NCBI GenBank assembly: GCA_000997355.1
Contig: LCBS01000001.1
Span: forward strand, 5,191 to 69,190
Length of the DNA: 64,000 bases
Reading direction: 5' to 3'
From: a candidate division WWE3 bacterium GW2011_GWB1_41_6
GTDB taxonomy: Bacteria; Patescibacteriota; WWE3; UBA101185; UBA10185
The stretch's first letter is position 1. The number at the start of each line of letters is the position of its first letter. Below, piece by piece: positions 7,227 to 52,531 of the stretch. The notes below the pieces were generated by a model. The model was not told the origin of the DNA. It made no database searches and saw only the letters and a list, made by a program, of their open reading frames with translations. Position numbers and translations under genes: made by a program.

Positions 7227-7946
7227 CTAGATTAGGTTTAGCAATTGTTCTCTCCAAGCAGGTATAAACTCATTACCCGGGCAAATAATAGAGTTATGTA
7301 CCTCTCTGTGACCTAAAATTCTTCCTTTTTCGATTTGTGAATAATGTTTTTTAATTAACTTGGCAAGTGAACCAAGCATCGCTGAATTTGGAGACTTTAA
7401 TTCCAGGTCATCGTCCAGACATATCCCTACGCTTCTTGCATTTATATCCCAATTACCTGCGTGCCAACCTATATACTTATCATCCAGTAACCGTTCAATA
7501 CTACCATCCTGTTTAACTAGCCAATGGTAGCCGTAAAACACTTGTTCTTGGTCAACAAAATGTCCAGACCAAACTGCCCGACCTTTAATTTCCCTGTTTT
7601 CCTGGCTTGGGTTAGTAAAAAATGGTACATACAACCTTAACAGATGCATGACGTTTAATCTACTATTTGTAAGCCCATTCGCCCGACTGGAGTGATGGAC
7701 GATTAGAGTATCGATGGTTTTTCTCTCATCATCCCAATTAGGACCTGTTTCACTAACTTGTAAGATACCTTCTGATAGACTTTTTCCAACATAGTCATAA
7801 ATCTCATCTACTATTTCCTCTCGTTCCTGTCGCGGCAGCTCCTTAACAGTATTCTCAATACGCTTGAAATCTTCACCCAAATAAAGGTACCAATCAATTT
7901 TACTTATATTTTTACTCCACAGGTCTCTGTCAAAAATATTTGGCAT
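7227..7946 (-). CDS. N-acetylmuramoyl-L-alanine amidase (amidase_2/PGRP fold)
   Basis: VHHSS ... GYHWLV ... GWHAGNWDINARSVGICL resembles the amidase_2 zinc site. Confidence 0.6.
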   Translation of the reverse strand: MPNIFDRDLWSKNISKIDWYLYLGEDFKRIENTVKELPRQEREEIVDEIYDYVGKSLSEGILQVSETGPNWDDERKTIDTLIVHHSSRANGLTNSRLNVMHLLRLYVPFFTNPSQENREIKGRAVWSGHFVDQEQVFYGYHWLVKQDGSIERLLDDKYIGWHAGNWDINARSVGICLDDDLELKSPNSAMLGSLAKLIKKHYSQIEKGRILGHREVHNSIICPGNEFIPAWREQLLNLI

Positions 7947-7948
7947 AT

Positions 7949-9205
7949 CTAATCTGTAAAATATCGTAAATAAGAAATTGTTTTTAACACAAAATCCATT
8001 AACTTATCCGTAACAGATTGTGGGTAAAAGTAATTTCTCTTTACTACACTTTTATATGCAATATCAAGTCTGTTATTCAACTTTGCTTTACGTTTTAGTA
8101 ATACCTCATCTGTAACTGCATTTTCATTTTTTAGTTTCTCAGAAACGGATTCAAGCACAATACCCTGAGAAGATTCCAAACTTGTTAAGGAAGTTAAAAG
8201 TTCTACACAAGTTACAACATCTGCTTTCTTAATTTCTTCAGACCTGATTATTCCATCATCTGCGCCATTATGTTTATATATGTTTGGTATGGTTAGGGTG
8301 CAAATATTTGGGGTTAGTTCGAACTGTGTAAAAGGTCTGGAATCGCACGAATCTTTTATCACCCCAACCTGAAGTTTAAGACTAGATGTATGTGCAATTT
8401 GTCTAAGTGTCAGCTCTAATTTGTTTGGTCCGGGATTCTTGTAGCCAAAAAGACACCCGGTGTTACTAAGCTGCAAAACAGGACCTCCGTTATAATCGAC
8501 TGCACCATATTTTTCGGAGTCGATACTTTCCGTTTTTAAACATTCCAAGTTCAATACATAATCATCAGTGGTTAAGTTAATATAGTTTGTTCTAGTTAAC
8601 CACCAAGAACTTACTTGATGTACTTCTTCATGTTTCATAAATGCCAAGAACACATCATATGTATTACCAATCAACTTGCTGGTTAACAGATAAAGCAATA
8701 TGGAAACCATTAATCCATCATCAGCGTTATAAAGATTAAGTGTAGTATCGGTTTCATCAAATGGAAAAATATCAAGCATACCGATCGAATTCCTAGGTAC
8801 TTCAAAATCAGCCTTTACCCATAACTCTTGCTTGGGACCCGGAATTATTTTATCTATTTTGGCATTACCAATGAATTCCCCTGCCGGATTGTAAACTCGC
8901 ACTTTAATATCATTTTCATCTAAATACTCAATTATGTTTTTTGTACCAACAAGACCTAAAAGTTGGCCACGTTTATCATTCTCAAGAACAATTCCCGGGT
9001 GATCGGTGTGTGCCATTATTAACAACTTTTTCCTCCCTATCAGAACCTGTGGTTCAACTAAAATCACGTATTCGTTTTCTTCGTATCGGATGTGCGCACT
9101 ATCTAGTGTATTTTTTATATATTGTGACGTATGTTTTTGTGCAAATGGGGCATTAGGGATTTTTTGGTAGTCTTCAATTATTTTCTTTAGCTTTGTATCG
9201 ATCAT
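7949..9205 (-). CDS. M42-family metallopeptidase-like protein
   Basis: MAHTDHPG, ADDGLMV and HEEV segments in M42-like order; may be degenerate. Confidence 0.4.
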   Translation of the reverse strand: MIDTKLKKIIEDYQKIPNAPFAQKHTSQYIKNTLDSAHIRYEENEYVILVEPQVLIGRKKLLIMAHTDHPGIVLENDKRGQLLGLVGTKNIIEYLDENDIKVRVYNPAGEFIGNAKIDKIIPGPKQELWVKADFEVPRNSIGMLDIFPFDETDTTLNLYNADDGLMVSILLYLLTSKLIGNTYDVFLAFMKHEEVHQVSSWWLTRTNYINLTTDDYVLNLECLKTESIDSEKYGAVDYNGGPVLQLSNTGCLFGYKNPGPNKLELTLRQIAHTSSLKLQVGVIKDSCDSRPFTQFELTPNICTLTIPNIYKHNGADDGIIRSEEIKKADVVTCVELLTSLTSLESSQGIVLESVSEKLKNENAVTDEVLLKRKAKLNNRLDIAYKSVVKRNYFYPQSVTDKLMDFVLKTISYLRYFTD

Positions 9206-38896: not shown

Positions 38897-41116
38897 ATGA
38901 AAAAAGATTTTCACATATCAGGAATGCATTGCGCCAGCTGTGCAATGAATATAAAGAGCGTACTTAATAAAGTACCGGAATTAAAGAACGTGGAGGTAAA
39001 TTTTGCCAGTGAACAGGCATCGGTTGAACATGACGGGGATTTCCCTAAAGACAAGGTCGGCAGTGCCGTAGAATCACTTGGGTACAAAGCTCATTTTGAT
39101 GAAGATAACAAAGACCAAACTCCTGAAGACGCGGCAGAATTGGAGTCAAAGAGAGAATTAAATGAACTAAAGACTAAATTAACATGGAGCACTTTCTTTA
39201 CTGTATTACTTTTGATAGGGGCAATGTTCATACAAGCCCCCGAAGTTCTTAGAAACCCCTGGGTCATGCTCATATTTGCTACACCCGTACAGTTCTGGGT
39301 GGGCGCTCAATATTATAAGAGCATGTGGGCATCGCTGAAAAATAGACTTGCCAACATGGATACTCTTATCGCGATAGGAACTTCGGTAGCGTATTTCTTT
39401 TCTTTAGCCGTGCTGCTTTTTGAAGAACAGCTGATACAGTTAGGTATCGAGCCACACGTTTACTTTGAGGTTTCCGCAACTATCATCACGCTTATACTTC
39501 TGGGCAAATATCTGGAAAAAAGAGCCAGGGGTCAGGCATCCTCAGCAATCAGAAAATTGCTGGACCTGCAGGCAAAGAACGCAACAGTGGTCCGGGACGG
39601 AAAAGAAATAATGATTCCCGTTGATCAAATCGTAGTAGGCGATACGATCATTGTAAAACCCGGAGAAAAACTTCCAATAGACGGTGAGATCATAAAGGGC
39701 GAGACATCTATAGATGAAAGTATGGTTACAGGTGAAAGCCTGCCCGTGGAAAAAGGCGTGGGCGCCAAAGTCATAGGAGCGACCGTGAACAAGAGCGGCT
39801 CAATAAGGATAGTAGCTACTAAAGTTGGTGAAAATACTTTGCTCGCACATATTATAGAAACCGTCAAACGCGCCCAGGCATCACGGGCACCCATCCAAAA
39901 ACTTGTAGATAAAATATCATCGGTGTTCGTCCCTATCGTTATTATTCTTGCATTGATCACGTTCCTTATGTGGTTCAACTTTGGTCCGGAACCTGCGTTC
40001 GTCCGGGGATTGGTTAGTTTGATCTCGGTTTTGATAATTGCGTGCCCTTGCGCTTTAGGTTTAGCCACTCCAATGTCTATTATGGTAGGAACGGGTAAGG
40101 GTGCCGAGAACGGCATCCTTATAAAAGATGCGGAAGCTTTGGAGGTTGCTAACAAAATAAATTATATTGTTTTCGACAAAACCGGGACTTTGACATACGG
40201 CAAGCCCGAAGTCGACGGTTTCGAAATAGTCGCGCGCGATACCGATCCTCAGTTCATAAAAAACGCTATTCTTGCCGTGGAAAAATTGTCACATCATCCG
40301 CTGGCCGAAGCTGTTGTGAGATATTTATCAAACGACACTGAGGTACCTGAAGCCGAGGGGTTTGTAGATAGGTCAGGCTTTGGTGTAAAAGCAACCGTTA
40401 ACGGCAAACCGGTTCTGATCGGAACAAAAAAACTAATGGAAAGTGAAAATATTGAGGTTACAAAAGAGGCTGATAAACTCGCGGAGGGCTGGAGAGATAA
40501 AGCCCGCACTGTTTCTTACGCAGCTATTGATAATAAAATAGCAGCATTGATAGGTATATCCGACTTAGTCAAACCAAACGCAAAAGAAGTTGTAGCCACG
40601 TTGAAAAAAATGGGCATCACACCCGTAATGATAACCGGTGATAACGCAAAAACGGCAAAAGCTATCGGGGAACAATTGGGAATTCAAGAAATCCTCTCTG
40701 AAGTCCTTCCTCAGGATAAAGCAAATAAAGTGAAGGAACTGCAGGAGGGCGCTAAAGTGGTGGCAATGGTAGGTGACGGAATTAACGACGCTCCGGCACT
40801 GGCAACCGCAAATATAGGTATCGCCATGGGCGAAGGAACTGACGTTGCGATCGAATCATCCGGGGTGACATTGCTGCGGGGTGATATATCACTGGTTCCA
40901 AAAGCAGTGAACCTATCAAAGTCGACTGTAAAGAATATTAAGCAAAATCTGGCTTGGGCGTTCGGATACAACGTTATTCTGATACCCGTAGCTATGGGTG
41001 TACTATATCCACTATTCGGAATATTACTTAACCCAATCCTGGCAAGCGGTGCCATGGCATTATCAAGCGTTTCGGTAGTTGTTAACGCCCTTAGACTCAG
41101 GACAAAAAAACTCTAG
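38897..41116 (+). CDS. copA: copper-translocating P1B-type ATPase
   Basis: [18 protein letters not shown] ([12 protein letters not shown]), [15 protein letters not shown]. Confidence 0.9.
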
Positions 41117-41130
41117 AATTCTTGACTTTA

Positions 41131-41170
41131 ATAAAAAAGGGAGCAGTCGTAGATCAATACTGCTCCTTTG
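41131..41170. terminator. bidirectional intrinsic terminator
   Basis: A-tract, then GGAGCAGT / ACTGCTCC stem with an 11-nt loop, then T-tract. Confidence 0.5.
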
Positions 41171-41177
41171 ATGAACG

Positions 41178-41468
41178 TCACTCCCGCTGATCGACATTTA
41201 CTGCTTCCCAAACCCACCTGGCCTTCATCTGGTACATGGCAGGTGATTCCAACGACCTGAGCAAGATACTTGTTTTGGCCGGAATATTCTTACACGCTCT
41301 ATAATCCGCCAATAAATTGTTGAATTGTGAGGCCGACTCTACATCAAAAACACAGAGCACGCCATCTACCATAACCCTATCACCTTTTCTTACGGGTTTA
41401 GGTTTTTGCTGACACACTTTTCCGAATTCCTTTAATACCTCGGGAATATTAATACATAGTGGAGGCAT
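41178..41468 (-). CDS. small hypothetical protein downstream of the RT
   Basis: Internal ATG with RBS aaaggagag is preferred over the track's GTG start at 41513; about 96 aa; GC-richer. Confidence 0.35.
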   Translation of the reverse strand: MPPLCINIPEVLKEFGKVCQQKPKPVRKGDRVMVDGVLCVFDVESASQFNNLLADYRACKNIPAKTSILLRSLESPAMYQMKARWVWEAVNVDQRE

Positions 41469-41554
41469 TCCAGTCTCTCCTTTCGTATCCCCTACCTTAT
41501 TGCCGGTATACACTTTTGCTATGTAATTCTACCATTGGACGTTCTGCACATTTA

Positions 41555-41592
41555 AAAAAAGGAGCAATGCTTTTTCAAGCTGCTCCTTTCTA
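41555..41592 (-). terminator. intrinsic terminator after the RT gene
   Basis: GGAGCA-at-GCTT tttc AAGC-TGCTCC hairpin with T-run on the minus strand. Its flanks are nearly identical to the hairpin at 41131. Confidence 0.45.
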
Positions 41593-41594
41593 TG

Positions 41595-42599
41595 TTAGAA
41601 CATTCTGGAGTTATGGAACGACGTAACCAGCCTTTCCAGCAACTCAGGGGTTCCTCTCACCTTTCCAAAATACTGCTGGAACAACCCGATGAAGTATGCA
41701 AGCTTGGCCCTGTCTTCCGGAGATAGTTTTTCCGGGTTGGTAGTCTTATATACCTGAGAAACCCAAGTCAGGATACCAAGAATCTGCTTTCTGTACACTT
41801 CAGGCGTTGGACTTGACAGTGCCTCGTTCAATAACAAAACGTACGCATCCAGCTTGTCAGGGTCCAGCTCTAGTCTATCCTCATATACATGTGTTCCGAG
41901 ATACGATATCGGCATGTGTTCAAAACCCGCCGACCAACTTACCTGAAAATCATGCATTGAGATTATCTTTGCTACTGCCCTGTCTACCGCCCACAGATTT
42001 ACGGGTTTATCGAAAGAGAAACACATGTTATCGGCATACCTTGTATACGCTCTTAGCGGGAAGTTACCTAGGATAGCCAGTAAATCTTTGTCCATCGGAT
42101 CCACAACGGCGTTAAAAACATATGGTGTAGATACACATCCCTGTGGAGTAGTTCCTTCATACGTGAGCAGGGTGGCTATCAGTAAACGGACCTCCTTTGA
42201 CATCTTCCGGAACCTTCTTTCCAATAGCTTGTAAATCTTCTCCTTTGTCACATGATCGAAAGCATCCTTTAAATCAACCACTAATGCGGTTTTTGCTCCC
42301 TGGTGCGGTTTGATCGCGGGAATTATACCTTTGCCGGTATAGCAATAATCGGCACTTCCGCCGAATGTTTTTACAAACCACGACGCAAGTATCGACTGAA
42401 CATAAACCAGATCTTTTGTAGCCGGAACGATCCTTCTCTTTCCTCCACTTTTCTTTTTTACATAGAAGGGTTTCAAATATCGTTCCCTTTCGGCTAGTGA
42501 CACCAGTCTTGAGATTGTATTCCGGTACCTGACAAGTTCCTTGTCAAAAGACGGTGTCGTATTCTCTGCCATAGACCAGATAATACTCTCTACGAACAT
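41595..42599 (-). CDS. reverse transcriptase (compact, retron/group-II-like finger-palm)
   Basis: RT motifs 1-2 KKKSGGKRRIVPATKDLVYVQ, A VVDLKDAFDHV, B TPQGCVSTPYVFN, C YTRYADN (N where the second catalytic Asp is expected). Confidence 0.75.
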   Translation of the reverse strand: MFVESIIWSMAENTTPSFDKELVRYRNTISRLVSLAERERYLKPFYVKKKSGGKRRIVPATKDLVYVQSILASWFVKTFGGSADYCYTGKGIIPAIKPHQGAKTALVVDLKDAFDHVTKEKIYKLLERRFRKMSKEVRLLIATLLTYEGTTPQGCVSTPYVFNAVVDPMDKDLLAILGNFPLRAYTRYADNMCFSFDKPVNLWAVDRAVAKIISMHDFQVSWSAGFEHMPISYLGTHVYEDRLELDPDKLDAYVLLLNEALSSPTPEVYRKQILGILTWVSQVYKTTNPEKLSPEDRAKLAYFIGLFQQYFGKVRGTPELLERLVTSFHNSRMF

Positions 42600-42645
42600 C
42601 TCTGCTCTCCTTTTTCTATATCTTCTTTTGTTTTATGAACGCCAA

Positions 42646-43323
42646 CTAACCGGACATTTCAATTGACGCTCTCCTTACTCCACCCGCGCCTCTTAACAAT
42701 AGCAATAGCACGACCCCCGTCACAAAACCCCCGACATGAGCTCCATATGCAATGCCTCCCGTTTCAGCAATCCCGATCGTTCCCAGTCCTGCTAAAAATT
42801 GAAATAAAAACCAATACAACAACATCGTGTATGCCGGAACGGTAATTATCCTTACCACAAAGCCAAAGAATACAAGAACATCGATCCCGTGGCGCGGGAA
42901 CAGTACCAGATAGCCTCCCATTATTCCCGCAATTGCTCCGGAAGCTCCCAGGTTCGGGATACCGGATGCGGGGTTTAAAAATATCTGTAGCGCTGTTGCC
43001 CCTAAACCGACCAGTATATAGAAAAACAAATATTTTATCGAACCCAAACGATCCTCGAGATTGTCCCCGAAAATATATAAAAATAACATATTCCCAAAAA
43101 GATGTCCCAAACTACCATGAAGGAACATGGATGTTACAAGTGTATAAAGATTTTGGCCGTTAACAACCAGGTTTGGTATCAAAGCATACTGATTTACGAA
43201 CATTTCCAGTCCGGGCTCTGACATTCCAAACATAAAAAAGAAGACGGCAATGTTAATGCCAAGCAATAGAAAATTCAGTATAGGTATTTTTCCCGATGGT
43301 GTATGGTCTTTTATTGGCAGCAT
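42646..43323 (-). CDS. rhomboid-family intramembrane serine protease
   Basis: FLHGSLGHLFGNM, GASGAIAG (GxSG) and AHVGGF catalytic histidine; 6 TM helices. Confidence 0.7.
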   Translation of the reverse strand: MLPIKDHTPSGKIPILNFLLLGINIAVFFFMFGMSEPGLEMFVNQYALIPNLVVNGQNLYTLVTSMFLHGSLGHLFGNMLFLYIFGDNLEDRLGSIKYLFFYILVGLGATALQIFLNPASGIPNLGASGAIAGIMGGYLVLFPRHGIDVLVFFGFVVRIITVPAYTMLLYWFLFQFLAGLGTIGIAETGGIAYGAHVGGFVTGVVLLLLLRGAGGVRRASIEMSG

Positions 43324-43431
43324 ATGTTTTTAGTCACTTTCTAGTATTTATACTATCTGTGTATTGATAAGGTTTCTTTAAAAAAGTGTTGCTGTTGTGA
43401 TAAAACCAAAAAAAGACCTCCGGACTATTTT

Positions 43432-44006
43432 TTAATCCGGAGGTATACGCGTACCATTAAAGTAAGCATCGATCTCCCGTACATTGTTTACCCGGAATTC
43501 CCAACCTTTTGGACTAATCGTTTTGATGGTGAGAACACCGGCATTCTTATCCCATCGTACGTTGTTGATGTCAAAGACAAGAGGATTGGAATTAAGTATA
43601 TGGTGATGTCCCCAGTTTCTACACCATTTTACCGCCTCCTGAAGATCAGGGAGAGTTAACACGGCTACCTCTCACGACAAAACATTCGCAGGAAACTCAA
43701 AACTTGATTCTTCAATGTTGGGTTCTTTTTTATCTCCCCCGCCCCGCGGCCAACAAAATACTGAACAGGTTGTGCTCTTCCAAGCTCTTCCTGTACTCTA
43801 GAGGCTAAGCCGTAGTGAGTCTCCGCCGCAAGGTAGCTGAAATCCACAAAGTTAATTTTCGGCAGACTCATATATGCACCTAACGGTTTGACAAAAATAT
43901 CGTCGCCGGATTCCAGATCCTGAGACGTATTGTACCCTATTACTACAACCCGCGCCTTACCTTCACCAACAGGTTCAAAAATCTCATATTGCCCAATGAA
44001 CGTCAT
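43432..44006 (-). CDS. two abutting small ORFs (113 aa and 76 aa, 2-nt gap, different frames); possibly a split gene
   Basis: ORFs 43665..44006 and 43432..43662; no motif. Confidence 0.3.
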
Positions 44007-44097
44007 TGTATTTACTCTCCTTTTATCTTATTCACCAGATTCGTTAAGCGTAATATACTATTAATAATAACTTATAACAAATTCCTGCCCCCAAGCA

Positions 44098-44511
44098 TTG
44101 AAAGTTATGAGTATCTATCCGTGTAAAGGAGAAGCAATGAGCAGATTAGTATGGTTACGGGCGAATATCAAATGCCATAGAGGATGCCGCACTTTCAGAT
44201 ACGTGGCTGAACTGGTGGCTACCGCCGCACTTGCGGGAGGTGCCAAAGAGTGTGGAAAAGCTCTGTTCCTGGAAGTTACAGAGGATGCTGTATCAAGGTG
44301 GGAAAAAAACACCTGGATGAAACCGGGCGATATTCGCCGGTTGAAGCTCCTCCGTGATGCAATTGCTAGTGATCTTGAAAACCGTCCAAATACTGCGGCT
44401 AAAGACTATAGAACCGTCGCGAGAGAAACAAATGGTCGTGTACCGTACGCATTGACACGGAAACGCGCTTTGATGAAAGTCGGCTCCCAGTTCGTAAAAG
44501 GTGAGATTTAA
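44098..44511 (+). CDS. basic hypothetical protein (GC-rich)
   Basis: 137 aa, Arg/Cys-rich N-terminus, clearly higher GC than the window average. Confidence 0.35.
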   Translation: MKVMSIYPCKGEAMSRLVWLRANIKCHRGCRTFRYVAELVATAALAGGAKECGKALFLEVTEDAVSRWEKNTWMKPGDIRRLKLLRDAIASDLENRPNTAAKDYRTVARETNGRVPYALTRKRALMKVGSQFVKGEI

Positions 44512-44608: not shown

Positions 44609-46063
44609 ATGCTGCCAAGAACACTAACATTCGTCGATGTAGAGACAACAGGAGCGAGCCTTAGAAACAGCAGAATAATAGAGATAGGGATCATAAGAGT
44701 TGAGAACGATCAAGTCGTTGATACTTTTCATTCCCTTTTGGATCCGGAAACTCACATTCCTCCGGAGATACTTGAATTCACAGGTATAACCCAGGACGAA
44801 ATAAAAAATGCCCCCACATTCAGCCAAATAAAAGATACGGTCATGGAACTTTTTAACGACTCCGTTTTTGTAGCCCATAACGTGAAGTTCGACTACTCCT
44901 TTATAAAAAAAGAATTTGTAATGCTGGAGGAACAGTTCAACGCCAAAACCATGTGTACAGTAAACCTTTCACGAAGCCTTTTCCCTTTTTACCGCAAACA
45001 CAATCTTGACGCTTTGATCGAACGGCATGGAATTTCGTGTGTCCGCAGGCATAGGGCAATTGACGACGCCAAAGTGTTGGTCGAATTCTATCAAAAAATG
45101 CTGGATGAGATCCCTTCCGAAGTTTTGATACGGGCTTTTGATAAAGTTATGAAAAACGCCAATATTCCTACGAAAATAAAATCCCGTGTGATCGAAGGCC
45201 TTCCCGATACACCCGGGATATACGTTTTTTACGGAAAGAACGGAGTTCCGCTTTACGTGGGAAAAAGCGTGAATATAAAGTCACGGGTGAAATCCCACTT
45301 CGCAGGTTCGAATATTACGTCCAAGGACTTTAAACTATCCCAGCAGATTGAGGATATTTCTTTTATGAAAACGGCGGGAGAACTAGGTGCTTTATTAAAA
45401 GAAGCTGAACTGGTCAAGGAACTTCAGCCGGTATATAACTCACGTTTGCGGAATTATCAAAGCCTCGTGCTCTTAAAAAATGTTAAGAACGAAGAAGGCT
45501 ATGAAACTGTTGAGATTTTTGAGACAGACAACCCCACATATAACGAAGTGATAAACTCTTTGGGAATTTTTAAGTCGCGTTCCCAGGCAAAGAAAAGTCT
45601 GGAGGAAGTGAGGGATAAACACGATCTTTGCACAAAACTACTTGGGTTGGAAAGCACCAAAGGTTCGTGTTTCTTGCATAAACTGGAAAAATGCAACGGA
45701 GCCTGTGTGGGAAAAGAAAACCCGATGAAATACAATATGCGCTTTTATATGGCTTTTTCCGGAACGAAACTGACACAATGGCCGTTTGAAGGCCCTGTTG
45801 TAATATCAGAAGTTGATGAGCTGAACGGAAAGGTCGAACGTTTCCTCGTGAACAATTGGAGGGTTCTAAAGACGGTTGATGAAGCTGTTGAGGAGTTGGA
45901 TGACCGGGAGGAAAACGGGATGAAAGCAGGGATTATTGCTGATATGCAGGAAGATTTTATGTTCGATCTGGACAACTATAAGATCATCAAGAATTTTTTT
46001 AGGAAAAAGGAGAATTTGGAGAACATTAAGAGGATCGGAAGTTTTTCACAGTTGGAGTGGTAG
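44609..46063 (+). CDS. DnaQ-like 3'-5' exonuclease fused to a GIY-YIG nuclease domain
   Basis: Exo I FVDVETTG, Exo II/III HNVKFD ... HRAIDDA; GIY-YIG: GIYVFYGKNGVPLYVGKS ... R ... E. Confidence 0.75.
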   Translation: MLPRTLTFVDVETTGASLRNSRIIEIGIIRVENDQVVDTFHSLLDPETHIPPEILEFTGITQDEIKNAPTFSQIKDTVMELFNDSVFVAHNVKFDYSFIKKEFVMLEEQFNAKTMCTVNLSRSLFPFYRKHNLDALIERHGISCVRRHRAIDDAKVLVEFYQKMLDEIPSEVLIRAFDKVMKNANIPTKIKSRVIEGLPDTPGIYVFYGKNGVPLYVGKSVNIKSRVKSHFAGSNITSKDFKLSQQIEDISFMKTAGELGALLKEAELVKELQPVYNSRLRNYQSLVLLKNVKNEEGYETVEIFETDNPTYNEVINSLGIFKSRSQAKKSLEEVRDKHDLCTKLLGLESTKGSCFLHKLEKCNGACVGKENPMKYNMRFYMAFSGTKLTQWPFEGPVVISEVDELNGKVERFLVNNWRVLKTVDEAVEELDDREENGMKAGIIADMQEDFMFDLDNYKIIKNFFRKKENLENIKRIGSFSQLEW

Positions 46064-48385: not shown

Positions 48386-51300
48386 ATGAGGATCCTGCCA
48401 ACTCCAACCGATATTCGGAGGAAAAAACGTCTTAAACGGACGAAACTAACTTCGAAATTTGCTATATTTGTCGGAATGTCTCTGGTTTTGCTTATTGCAA
48501 TAGGGTCTCCCCTTGTTTCCAAAGAAATCCAAATAAAGAGAATCAAGACGGATAAAGAAGGTTTTCAGATGAACGAAAGTGTCGAGATCGATATGGGTTC
48601 GTATGAACCGGCTGAGCTGCACGTTTATCTTTTGCGCGGTGAGGAAAAGATCGAGATTAGTGCTGAGTCTATAACGATAGAAAACGGAACTTTATCTATT
48701 AAACCTAGCAAAGATATAAAACCCGGTGCTTACAACCTTATTATTCAGGACGGAACACGCGTAATATACGACAATAATTTTGCTTGGGGCGTTCTAGCCA
48801 TGAACTTCAACAAGTCAGTTTATTTGCCGGATGAAAAGGCTAATATCTCTATCGCGGTTCTGGATGATCAGGGAAATATGGTTTGCGACGCTAATCTAAC
48901 TTTAGTGGCAGAGAATGTGGAACTCGGCCTTACTACAACATTATCAACCGGGGATGATACCATCACAGTAAATCCCGATTGTTACAGGCACGGGTACACG
49001 CTCGATCCCGACTTTGAAACTGAGTACGGATTCGAAGGGATTGGCTCGTATGATTTTACACTTACTGCGGTAACGCAAAACGGTGAGTACGCAATAACCG
49101 ACCAAATAGAAGTCCGTGAAAGTGTTCCATTTGATGTCGAGCGACTTATTGCCACAAGAATATATCCTGCTGATAAATATCCTGTGAATATAGTTATCAC
49201 AGCAAACCAGGACTTTAGCGGTGTGATCCAGGAAACTATTCCTGCGGAATTTGAAATAACTCCGCCATTACACTCCACATCATATGAACTTATTGATGAG
49301 GCGGATAGTAAAAAGTATATTACATGGCAGGTTAACTTAACAGCCGGGGAAACAATTAATATCGGGTATTACTTTAAAGCTCCTGAAATAAGCCCACAGT
49401 TTTATTTGCTTGGAACTCTAAAGTTCTATGAGATCAAAGATGTGGTTGATAATGCACTGGATATTGAAGACATAGAAAATAATGAGGATTTATATGTTGA
49501 GTATGAAACGGAATCGAGTGAGTCCACTGAGTCAAGCGAATACGATAACCAGCAATCATTTCTAATAAGAAACGTCTATGCGGAGGAGTCCACTGAGTCG
49601 GGATTGAGCGTCGACGAATTGGAAGAATTAATGAACTTTGTTCCTCAATCACAAATCGTAGAAGAGGAAGAAAATGTATTGTCCGGCACAGTAATACAAG
49701 AAGAGTTCTTGGTTTTTGAGGAAACGCGCAAGTGGCAGCTTGCGATTGACGTTGTAGCCAAGATGATACTGCTTTGGGACAATGCTTCTTCCATCCCGAC
49801 TGATTGGACATGTTTATCGTGCGGATCGGGGGATTTTTATAACAGGTTTATCAGGGGGTCGGATGCTTACGGAACATCTCAAGGCGGAAACACCTCCCAC
49901 ACTCACTCCGATCCGGGAACCTTAACACTTGTTGATAGTTCAGGTGACTTAGGTACAGCCGGATCCAGCAATACCAACAAACCTCCCAAACAGGATCATA
50001 CCCATCAGATTGCCTCGCCCAGCGTTGCTTCGGGACTTTCAGCTGATAATTTACCAGCATATCGCACCTTAAGAGTAATACGTTATGATTTTGGCATACC
50101 GGCAACATTACCGGCGGGGGTAATTGCATATTTTGTTGACTCTGTACCGGGGGGCTGGACAAAAGTTTATAACGACGGAACCACACCCAGATACGCAAGG
50201 GGAGCAGATACCGTTACCACCGGAGGAAGCAATACCCATACCCATACATTACCCCTAAACAACTCGGCCGGACCCCTTGGAGTACAAAATGTTAAAGGTG
50301 CGGCAAGCGGTACCACTGTTGCCAGTTCCGGCCATACTCATAATAGTACCAGCGGTAGCTCAAACTCCGGGTCAAGTGAGCCGCCATACGTTAACGTCAC
50401 TCTTGCCCAAAAAGATTCAACGGGCGCTGTAACCACTAACATGATTGCCATGTTTGACAACACACCTCCGGCGGGAAATTGGACATTAAAGTCCGATTCA
50501 GGCAGCACTTTTTATCAAAGATTTCCCAGACCTACCGATACCAGCTTAGATACTACCAGTGATACCAGCGCGCACACCCATAGCAACTTTACTATCAATT
50601 CCAGCACCTTAACCGGAGGTACAGGTGACGGTATTGTGGGATCGGGTGGAACCGCTTTTAGCAGCACTTCCCATCAGCATGGAATTACCTTTAGCTTAGA
50701 CTCGCAGGATCATACTCCTGTATATTGGGATGCCATTTTTGCAAAAGCTACAAGTGCTCCCTCCCCTAACCTGGAACAAATCCATTACCACTGGAGGAAC
50801 GACAGCGATAATGAAGCTAACGCCACATCAGCTACAAGCGGAACGGAGGATACGTCACTCAATATAACTAGCGGTTCCAACAAAAGATTGAGAATCGGCG
50901 TTGCTAATGAAGGAGGTGCAGCTGCTGAGGATGTGACGTTCCGTCTGGAATACGGAGCCAAATCTACTACATGCGGTGCTATAGGCACTTGGGTAGATGT
51001 CGGAGCTGATGGAGACGACTGGGATATGTATAACACAACTAACCTTACGGACGGAAACGATACAACAGACATAAGCAATACAATAGGGGGCGTTACTAAT
51101 ACAAATCCTACATTCAAAACGCCAAACACAGGAGTAAAAGATGCCTCCTCGCAGGTTGGGGTTTTGGATCTAACCATAGAAGACTTTACAGAAATGGAGT
51201 TTTCGGTTACGGCTGCGGGTAGCGTGGGGGATTACTGTTTTAGACTAACAAATGCCGGATCAACCACGAACATAACTACTACCACATATGCACTTGCCAG

Positions 51301-52531
51301 TATTACCAACGCAAACACAGCCCCCAACACTCCAACAAGCCTTGTTCAAGCTAAAACGGATGATACGGTTCTAAGTACGGGTGATTGGACGGATGAAACG
51401 TCAGTCAAGTTCACCGCTACCGCGGATGATACAGACGCCAGCGACACCCTCTACCTTTGCGTAGAGAAAGACGACACAGACACTGCTTTCTCGGGAACCG
51501 AGGATCTTTGCGGGAACGGGGTAGCATACTCAGGAACACCAGTCTCTGTTTCGGTAACAATTACAAGTATAACTGATGCAACCCAATATCACTGGCAAGC
51601 CAGAGTCAAAGACGCCGCTAATGAGTATTCTTCGATGCAGGTATACGGAGCCAACTCCGACACAACCCCCGGAGCCGACCGTGATTTTGGCGTTGATACC
51701 ACAGCTCCGACGGGCGGCACGGTTTATGATGGAACGGAAGCCGGAGTAGACAAAGACTTCAGTACTGCATCGCTATCTCAACTATCTGCTAATTGGGGGA
51801 GTTTTAATGCTGCAGCTTCAGGGTTGCAGTATTATGAATACTCTATAGGAACAACCCAGGGTGGAGTTGATACCAAAGGTTGGACGAATGCAACAACCGA
51901 CACCTCCGTAACTGCTACCGGTTTAACATTAATGACATCCAAAATTTACTATTTTAATGTCCGGGCAACGGATAACGCAGATAATGTTCAATCGGCAGTC
52001 TCGTCAGACGGACAAGTTGTCGCACCAAGTTTGGCATTTAGTGTCACGCCGCCGTCCATCACGTTCACCAACCTTGGGCCAGGTAATAGTTATACAGCAA
52101 CGAACAACGCAACATTAACAACATCAACCAATGCGTATAACGGATACGTTATCAGAGCATATACAACCGATCTATTAAAATCCATAGACCTCACCGATAA
52201 TATAATTAATTTTAACGGAGGATCTTATGCCGCACCCGACGAATGGTTGAGCGGTGACAGAGGTTTTGGCTACTACACTTCCGACACTTCTGTTCAAGGT
52301 TCTAATATATTCAATCCCCCAACCTGTCTTGGTGGAGGCAGTTCACCCTGCTACGCACCGTTCTCTCAAACAGCACCGGGTGACATTATTGCGGATAATA
52401 CCGGTACAATTACAGGAACACCTATAACCGCGGAGGAATTTACAGTTAATTTTAAGGTTCAGGTTAACCCTACTCAGGCGACTTCCGATTATAGTACGAC
52501 CGTTGTTTATACGGTGACAGCGCAGTACTAA
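48386..52531 (+). CDS. giant cell-surface protein with tandem phage-tail-collar-like domains and FN3 domains
   Basis: Signal anchor; at least 3 repeats of (I/V)A(M/Y)F ... P.GW ... then T(S/N)HTH (collar-domain LPxHxH pattern); FN3 with DNADNVQS; 1381 aa. Confidence 0.7.
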   Translation: MRILPTPTDIRRKKRLKRTKLTSKFAIFVGMSLVLLIAIGSPLVSKEIQIKRIKTDKEGFQMNESVEIDMGSYEPAELHVYLLRGEEKIEISAESITIENGTLSIKPSKDIKPGAYNLIIQDGTRVIYDNNFAWGVLAMNFNKSVYLPDEKANISIAVLDDQGNMVCDANLTLVAENVELGLTTTLSTGDDTITVNPDCYRHGYTLDPDFETEYGFEGIGSYDFTLTAVTQNGEYAITDQIEVRESVPFDVERLIATRIYPADKYPVNIVITANQDFSGVIQETIPAEFEITPPLHSTSYELIDEADSKKYITWQVNLTAGETINIGYYFKAPEISPQFYLLGTLKFYEIKDVVDNALDIEDIENNEDLYVEYETESSESTESSEYDNQQSFLIRNVYAEESTESGLSVDELEELMNFVPQSQIVEEEENVLSGTVIQEEFLVFEETRKWQLAIDVVAKMILLWDNASSIPTDWTCLSCGSGDFYNRFIRGSDAYGTSQGGNTSHTHSDPGTLTLVDSSGDLGTAGSSNTNKPPKQDHTHQIASPSVASGLSADNLPAYRTLRVIRYDFGIPATLPAGVIAYFVDSVPGGWTKVYNDGTTPRYARGADTVTTGGSNTHTHTLPLNNSAGPLGVQNVKGAASGTTVASSGHTHNSTSGSSNSGSSEPPYVNVTLAQKDSTGAVTTNMIAMFDNTPPAGNWTLKSDSGSTFYQRFPRPTDTSLDTTSDTSAHTHSNFTINSSTLTGGTGDGIVGSGGTAFSSTSHQHGITFSLDSQDHTPVYWDAIFAKATSAPSPNLEQIHYHWRNDSDNEANATSATSGTEDTSLNITSGSNKRLRIGVANEGGAAAEDVTFRLEYGAKSTTCGAIGTWVDVGADGDDWDMYNTTNLTDGNDTTDISNTIGGVTNTNPTFKTPNTGVKDASSQVGVLDLTIEDFTEMEFSVTAAGSVGDYCFRLTNAGSTTNITTTTYALASITNANTAPNTPTSLVQAKTDDTVLSTGDWTDETSVKFTATADDTDASDTLYLCVEKDDTDTAFSGTEDLCGNGVAYSGTPVSVSVTITSITDATQYHWQARVKDAANEYSSMQVYGANSDTTPGADRDFGVDTTAPTGGTVYDGTEAGVDKDFSTASLSQLSANWGSFNAAASGLQYYEYSIGTTQGGVDTKGWTNATTDTSVTATGLTLMTSKIYYFNVRATDNADNVQSAVSSDGQVVAPSLAFSVTPPSITFTNLGPGNSYTATNNATLTTSTNAYNGYVIRAYTTDLLKSIDLTDNIINFNGGSYAAPDEWLSGDRGFGYYTSDTSVQGSNIFNPPTCLGGGSSPCYAPFSQTAPGDIIADNTGTITGTPITAEEFTVNFKVQVNPTQATSDYSTTVVYTVTAQY

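Follow-up and report, generated by a model that had tools for sequence, protein, structure and literature searches.

The analysed window, a stretch of 64,000 nucleotides (nt) from the candidate division WWE3 bacterium GW2011_GWB1_41_6 (contig LCBS01000001.1, positions 5,191 to 69,190 of the forward strand), was found to contain a gene for a reverse transcriptase (RT) of 334 amino acids (aa) at 41595-42599 on the minus strand. The gene was taken from the open reading frame (ORF) listing and was found to match Pfam RVT_1 (E=1.5e-13), and its product was found to be identical (100% identity) to the deposited WWE3 protein KKS17576.1, which is labelled 'RNA-directed DNA polymerase' in GenBank. A co-oriented rhomboid protease gene lies upstream of the RT gene, followed on the other side by the presence of a small ORF between two hairpins and of a convergent CopA gene. 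Homology searches place the RT in a small, hitherto uncharacterised lineage that is related to retron RTs and restricted to Patescibacteria.

The RT gene was found to be preceded by a ribosome-binding site (RBS), AAAGGAGAG, at 42605-42613 on the minus strand (GGAG at 42610-42607), which was read from the sequence within the 46-nt spacer past the rhomboid stop codon. Motif A of the protein contained the sequence VVDLKDAFDHV with the catalytic Asp109 (codon at 42273-42275, minus), followed by the presence of TTPQGCVSTPY in motif B and YTRYADNMCFS around motif C. The motif C codons TAT GCC GAT AAC were found at 42027-42038 (minus) and encode Y188-A-D190-N191, the Asn codon being 42029-42027. The predicted fold (AlphaFold2 model, mean predicted local distance difference test score, pLDDT, 94.6) contained the full fingers, palm and thumb and no further domain. 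The preliminary description of this DNA had claimed a genuine compact RT with PQG...STP in motif B and YTRYADN (tat gcc gat aac) in motif C, as well as an RBS and a 46-nt distance from the stop of the co-oriented rhomboid gene, and all of these were borne out.

To delimit the family of the RT, 1.84 billion representatives were searched exhaustively with a profile. The family was found to contain 36 clusters at 50% identity (E<=1e-30), past which the profile scores fell to the general retron-like range of ~100-125 bits. A second profile search, of 5.8 billion proteins and with a capped candidate list, contributed few further members. Family loci are given here as L-numbers and proteins from this search as P-numbers. 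Every labelled member was a WWE3/Katanobacteria or 'Patescibacteria group' metagenome-assembled genome (MAG). Strict pattern scans returned 2 family loci among 185,579 species genomes, and no member was found in phage and plasmid collections, where the only matches were distant retron-type RTs of <31% identity. The family was monophyletic against VTG/YADD retron-like RTs in a neighbour-joining (NJ) tree. Three proteins of the same search, P0058 (719 aa), P0067 (1381 aa) and P0073 (584 aa), were found to contain two tandem RT-like motif sets each. In these double-RT fusions, which reach 115-183 bits with the family profile, one set reads Y-L/I-DD and the other YADD, and a separate PQG motif B belongs to each set.

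The residues R55, D109, A113, G154, Y188, D190, L234 and G235 were found to be invariant across 34 family sequences that are as low as 24% identical, and K49, Q153, R187 and H99 were nearly invariant (H99 in at least 90% of members). By analogy to the human immunodeficiency virus type 1 (HIV-1) RT, we take these conserved residues to correspond to the contacts of the dNTP triphosphate, two of the three metal-binding aspartates and motif B, and Phe114 presumably occupies the steric-gate position of Y115. In the 11 closest homologues, the cysteines C86 (DYCY, region X), C155 (PQGC, motif B) and C193 (DN-x-C, past motif C) showed full or nearly full conservation, which was weaker across the wider family. 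Within the family, only the window RT and P0002, which is closest to it, were found to have a thumb insertion of 11 residues (about 290-300; LSPEDRAKLAY in the window RT).

The Asn in motif C, which the preliminary description had read from the aac codon and proposed to re-check, proved to be real and was found to be a trait of the family. The identical 334-aa protein was deposited from four WWE3 (Katanobacteria) MAGs and was found on 18 contigs, and none of the 11 closest homologues (38-51% identity) departs from R-Y-x-D-N; Asn191 is therefore not an assembly or sequencing error. Motif C could be read in 39 sequences of the family, of which 33 contained YxDN and six YxDD, and the YxDD members were scattered inside the YxDN clade of the rough NJ tree. 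At the same position between a penicillin-binding protein (PBP) gene and Ddl, P0041 was found to contain YVDD, P0009 YADN and P0011 YSDN, so Asp and Asn alternate between orthologues. In the literature search, no paper was found that speaks of a YADN motif in RTs or reports an RT from WWE3. Outside the family, the retron-like protein P0089 (396 aa, 101 bits) was also found to read RYADN in motif C, and by this sequence the D-to-N change also arises sporadically elsewhere among retron-like RTs. The L polymerases of mononegaviruses, with GDN in motif C, are a natural palm-domain polymerase family that functions with the same Asp-Asn pair in place of Asp-Asp.

With respect to the RT class, the best 25 PADLOC matches of the RT were all retron RT models. 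The retron types II-A, III-A, XII, I-C and XI were nearly equal (6.9e-29 to ~1e-26), with coverage of residues ~36-221 only, which is the RT core. Among the NCBIfam models, retron St85 was matched with 100 bits, which is below the family cut-off of 235 bits, and the group II model with 32.8 bits. The family profile against the PDB returned the RTs of retrons Kva2, Ec86, Ec67, Ec83 and Ec78 at the top. In the fold comparison, the RT model scored 23.7 with retron Ec86, 21.3 with retron Eco7, 21.2 with retron Eco2 and 20.2 with retron Eco8, followed by the RT of a diversity-generating retroelement (DGR) with 19.6, DRT2 with 18.5, a group II RT with 15.8 and G2L4 with 15.1; the structures of DRT2, DRT9, AbiA, Abi-P2 and DRT4 ranked under the retron RTs. 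By sequence and by fold, the window RT thus falls in the retron or retron-like clade.

Group II-type and DGR RTs were considered and rejected. The RT was not found to cluster with group II intron maturases (group II model 32.8 against 100 bits for St85), nor did it belong to the G2L lineage of the G2L4 type. DGR RTs have a motif B of the I/LGxxxSQ type, a pair of template and variable repeats and an accessory gene; the window RT reads PQGCVSTP and no long direct repeats were found in 40900-43600, which rejects a DGR RT. RTs of the UG/Abi classes usually have a C-terminal alpha-repeat or another domain, and no extra domains of the Abi or DRT type (defence-associated RTs) were found in the family. 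The earlier reading of motif B as retron- or group-II-like and not DGR-type was thus upheld, with retron RTs as the best profiles. As for the placement among reference RT classes that had been proposed with it, the retron RTs came first and the clustering with group II maturases did not appear, and the group UG38 was compared by description only.

The two retron-specific motifs were found to be altered. The VTG triplet of region Y (RT7) directs a retron RT to its msr, and within the two motifs conservation is highest at the His (region X) and the Gly (region Y) (PMC7736814). The triplet was not found in the family: the window RT contained S-Y-L-G-T and all members contained Y/F-L-G, in which only the Gly is kept, whereas the flanking retron-like RTs have VTG. 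In region X, which lies between RT2 and RT3, the NAXXH sequence (NATPH of Ec86) was found to align with a-v-k-k-H of the family and PAIKPH of the window RT; H99 is kept and the N and A positions are not, and across the family the region is reduced to x-A-V/I-x-x-H.

A retron is defined by its contiguous non-coding RNA (ncRNA) (PMC7736814), and such an RNA was not found. Rfam searches of the whole window at the gathering threshold, of the interval 40900-43700 at E<=1 and of nine related loci returned only tRNAs and two sub-threshold hairpin matches, with no group II intron family and nothing relevant to the RT. In the window, the RT was found to follow the conserved rhomboid gene after a spacer of 46 nt, and in L001 after one of 25 nt. 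Elsewhere in the family, the RT was preceded either by a -10-like box, a leader of 30-60 nt and an RBS or by a spacer of 25-46 nt past another gene, followed by the presence of a plain terminator hairpin past the stop codon. A contiguous msr-msd with a1/a2 inverted repeats was not found at the window, L001 or the surveyed loci, where an ncRNA that overlaps coding sequence or is supplied in trans could have escaped notice, and the search for DGR-like or a1/a2-like repeats returned only short, chance-level matches in 40900-43600. The absence of group II intron RNA, of room for an msr-msd and of DGR repeats, as first described, was hence supported by the Rfam searches, the spacer lengths and the repeat search. 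The minus strand of 41120-41600, which had been put forward for an msr/msd-like or DRT-type ncRNA, was found to fold with z = -1.6, and nothing stood out beyond the two terminators.

The rhomboid intramembrane protease gene upstream of the RT was found at 42646-43323 (minus, 225 aa, Pfam Rhomboid E=2.9e-30). The intrinsic terminator of the preceding gene was found in the terminator scan at 43416-43444 (minus; free energy dG -19.3, z -4.6) and marks the upstream limit of the rhomboid-RT unit; the same scan contained no terminator between the rhomboid and the RT. From this arrangement, the RT is probably co-transcribed with the rhomboid in this lineage, from a promoter after the 43416-43444 terminator to the hairpin at 41554-41592. 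The CopA gene was found at 38897-41116 on the plus strand, convergent to the RT, with a guanine-plus-cytosine (GC) content of 44.3%.

The gene contexts of 20 loci, which correspond to ~13 independent contexts, were compared, and the flanking ORFs of 14 loci were compared all against all. In the latter comparison the RT alone was common to all loci, and no partner gene and no effector were found. The rhomboid and CopA were linked to the RT only in the window, L001 and L009, which are one synteny group, and the rhomboid was absent in all other contexts (~12). Most contexts contained genes such as PBP/Ddl, glycosyltransferases, cupin or TauE. Judged by gene order, the adjacency of rhomboid and RT is local synteny within one lineage and not a conserved RT system. 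A conserved synteny with the rhomboid, which had been put forward as a check, therefore held within this one synteny group only, and the suggested partner set of rhomboid, RT and small ORF was not sustained, as the small ORF is an ORFan that is absent in L001.

The RT segment had also been described as a patch that is roughly 8-10% richer in GC, as a hint of acquisition. The GC content of the segment was found to be 43.6%, against 40.7% in the window and 42.9% and 40.7% in the 5-kb flanks; about 10% of equal-sized windows were as rich, and the neighbouring CopA was richer. Identities between the window and L001 were 69% for a fusion of a DEDD exonuclease and a Cho-type excinuclease, 73% for the rhomboid, 71% for CopA and 72% for a cupredoxin, against 51% for the RT. 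Between L004 and L005, the neighbours were 57-76% and the RT 44% identical, and the order PBP-RT-Ddl was kept in a third genome (994-kb contig). Vertical, resident inheritance of the RT follows because the neighbours are syntenic and more alike, the PBP-RT-Ddl order is kept, no phage or plasmid member was found and no compositional anomaly is present. CopA and the cupredoxin share the synteny of the window and L001, and therefore the region was inherited rather than inserted. The idea of horizontal acquisition was thus not supported, and on these comparisons the RT is a chromosomally resident, vertically inherited, rare accessory gene that diverges faster than its neighbours.

The small ORF downstream of the RT was found at 41178-41468 on the minus strand (96 aa from the ATG at 41468, or 111 aa from a GTG, 41178-41513), with an AAGGAG RBS upstream and an extended -10-like promoter box. 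Among 5.8 billion proteins it was found to match only itself, and it contained no match in Pfam, PADLOC, NCBIfam or PHROGs and no similarity to the RT. It was missing in L001 and L009, and in L001 the stops of the RT and CopA lie only 74 nt apart. From its distribution, the small ORF is a lineage-specific insert and not a partner of the RT.

Two hairpins were found to bracket this ORF only and are ordinary terminators. One hairpin with a T-run lies directly past the RT stop at 41554-41592 (minus; folded part at about 41556-41591, dG -19.5, z -4.1). The other, at 41131-41170, lies between an A-tract and a T-tract, folds on both strands (folded part at about 41140-41166, dG -12.9, z -2.2) and can terminate the small ORF on the minus strand and CopA on the plus strand. 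The stem GGAGCA..TGCTCC was found in the window at just these two sites (expected 0.03; 0 of 100 shuffles with at least two). The hairpins were ~65% identical over 66 nt, with the same 10-11 nt stem, similar flanks and different loops. They resemble diverged copies of one another, and L001 contained a single, different hairpin. This pattern suggests that the small-ORF cassette arose or was inserted together with a duplication of the terminator. The ~96-aa ORF with its own RBS and the twin hairpins with a common stem and A- and T-tracts had both been described correctly.

Further features were observed around the RT. Three small ORFs of 76, 113 and (divergent) 137 aa were found at 43432-44511, between the rhomboid and the Cho-like gene, and none of them matched Pfam, NCBIfam, PADLOC or PHROGs; counterparts of two are present in L001, at 37% identity. 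The Cho-like gene at 44609-46063 (plus) encodes a protein of 484 aa with an N-terminal DnaQ-like DEDD 3'-5' exonuclease and a GIY-YIG/Cho-type excinuclease. A 1381-aa ORF at 48386-52531 (plus) contained no Pfam domain, has a high content of Thr, Ser and Gly and resembles the large surface proteins that are typical of genomes of the Candidate Phyla Radiation (CPR). The double-RT protein P0067 is of equal length, and the two proved to be unrelated. A BrnT/CopG-type toxin-antitoxin pair was found in L003 at 7735-8269 (minus), two genes downstream of the RT, and is the sole case of defence- or addiction-type genes that was observed near family members.

Taken together, the RT is read here as a Patescibacteria-restricted offshoot of retron RTs and a retron-derived, free-standing, active polymerase with YxDN, and this reading as a whole is considered rather probable. 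The RT would be an active DNA polymerase that naturally has a carboxamide in place of the third catalytic carboxylate. Because every other catalytic residue is conserved, catalysis is expected to be changed and not lost, and the metal or pyrophosphate site may be altered, by analogy. The D211N mutant of the Ty1 RT, in which the second D of YXDD is likewise replaced by N, remains a processive polymerase, with a 223-fold lower kpol and a preference for Mn2+ (PMC2148107), which shows that Asn is compatible with processive polymerisation. Ty1 D211N is an engineered change in a eukaryotic RT, that of a long-terminal-repeat retrotransposon, and its transposition is blocked, whereas the Asn of the present family is natural and conserved. 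By this analogy, the window RT would polymerise more slowly, with a shift towards Mn2+. Since the RT has nothing encoded next to it, its template or primer would be supplied from elsewhere, perhaps as an RNA encoded in trans, an RNA of the cell or the nucleic acid of an invader.

As to its role, a self-contained, retron-derived polymerase for nucleic-acid surveillance or defence is put forward tentatively, as a leading guess. It is preferred because of the retron ancestry and the faster evolution of the RT, and the gene context gives it no positive support.

Several points weigh against this account. Retroviral RTs become inactive when any one of the three aspartates is mutated (cited in PMC2148107). 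The polymerase activity of the window RT is deduced from sequence and analogy. The neighbours include neither a defence island nor an effector, none of them matched PADLOC, and stable housekeeping genes lie around the RT. In the NJ tree, which is rough and lacks a true outgroup, the family may be sister to the retrons or nested within them. The census rests on metagenome assemblies with many short contigs, from which a distant partner gene or RNA could be missed.

One alternative, which is regarded as unlikely, is a polymerase for the repair or tolerance of DNA damage. It would have been domesticated from the retron lineage as G2L4 was from group II introns, and would act in gap filling or bypass during the processing of deaminated, alkylated or abasic bases. 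The fixed chromosomal position, the vertical inheritance and the lack of an ncRNA and an effector agree with it, as does the existence of G2L4, a free-standing group II-like RT with known structures (9d4s, 9d5x). A deoxyinosine DNA glycosylase gene was found to adjoin the RT divergently in L002 (5399-5908, minus), a 3-methyladenine-glycosylase-like HhH-GPD gene convergently in L003 (7078-7719, minus), with a dCMP deaminase nearby, and a Ham1/ITPase gene was found to abut the RT in L020 (989-1261, minus). An SRAP gene was found two genes off the RT in L008 (4577-5332, plus), and the DEDD-exonuclease/Cho fusion four genes from the RT in the window and L001. A rough binomial estimate for three adjacent base-damage cases in ~13 contexts is ~2e-3; however, the category was picked post hoc, from the data, and the genes are not co-transcribed with the RT, being divergent, convergent or distant. 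Most contexts contained the PBP/Ddl, glycosyltransferase, cupin or TauE genes named above instead, the family is too rare in Patescibacteria for core repair, as the two loci of the strict scans show, and the faster evolution of the RT also weighs against a repair function. A wider form of the idea, a second independent RT domestication for cellular DNA metabolism, from the retron lineage and in the CPR, in which YxDN tunes metal use or speed and the partners are glycosylases, ITPase and SRAP rather than phage defence, is held to be somewhat more doubtful.

The closeness to retron RTs in sequence and fold, together with the retained His of region X and Gly of region Y (H99, G235), would also fit a cryptic retron, which makes msDNA (multicopy single-stranded DNA) out of an ncRNA that overlaps the 3' end of the upstream gene, lies in the leader or is supplied in trans, with its effector elsewhere. 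The short spacers of the window and L001 beside a well-conserved rhomboid gene, the ~30-60 nt leaders from -10-like boxes and the downstream terminators at other loci leave little place for such an RNA. With the weak fold of 41120-41600, the lack of an Rfam match, the replacement of VTG by Y/F-L-G and the missing conserved effector, this explanation is considered improbable. A dead RT fold that was recruited as an RNA- or DNA-binding factor, with Asn as the mark of lost chemistry, would be in line with the inactive retroviral mutants and with the template not being encoded nearby. Against it stands the invariance or near-invariance of D109, Y188, D190, G154, Q153, R55 and K49 across sequences that are 24-50% identical, which would not be expected after a loss of catalysis, together with the alternation of Asp and Asn among orthologues and the activity that Ty1 D211N keeps; this explanation is judged slightly more improbable still. 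Finally, the three co-oriented, tightly spaced genes with an RBS on each, the recurrence of the rhomboid-RT pair in L001 and L009 and the non-random hairpin copies could be explained by a horizontally acquired cassette of rhomboid, RT and small ORF between the twin hairpins. As the rhomboid is absent in ~12 other contexts, the small ORF is absent in L001 and L009, the hairpins bracket the small ORF only, the GC content is not distinctive and CopA and the cupredoxin share the synteny, hardly any weight is given to such a cassette.

The free-standing retron-derived polymerase that is preferred here was compared with known systems. The retron RTs (Ec86/Eco1, Ec67/Eco2, Ec78/Eco7 and Kva2) were found to have the same fingers, palm and thumb of ~310-330 aa, PQG..S(T)P and R-Y-x-D, as well as the His and Gly residues of regions X and Y, respectively. 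The family differs from them by Y/F-L-G in place of VTG, by x-A-V/I-x-x-H in place of NAXXH and by the prevalent Asn, as well as by the lack of a contiguous msr-msd and of an effector, by its occurrence outside mobile and defence contexts and by its restriction to Patescibacteria. G2L4 (9d4s, 9d5x) is likewise a free-standing chromosomal RT without intron RNA, dedicated ncRNA or effector, and is a plausible precedent for domestication. UG38, a class 2 group of the UG/Abi RTs that is reported from metagenomic CPR genomes only (PMC9226505), is likewise small, infrequent, CPR-restricted and free-standing, as far as its description allows the comparison.

By alternating between YxDN and YxDD, the orthologues offer an experiment of nature on the third catalytic carboxylate. 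To our knowledge, this carboxylate of RTs has so far been probed only by mutagenesis, as in Ty1 D211N. The RT is small and its model is of high confidence, so in vitro tests would be straightforward. The characterised RTs of the retron clade that we know of are all part of defence systems that consist of RT, ncRNA and effector. A bare retron-type RT, with an intact core and with no ncRNA, effector or msr-recognition triplet, would show what such an RT can do, and the family would be a candidate case of reverse transcription put to a new use, cellular or defensive, in the genome-reduced bacteria of the CPR.

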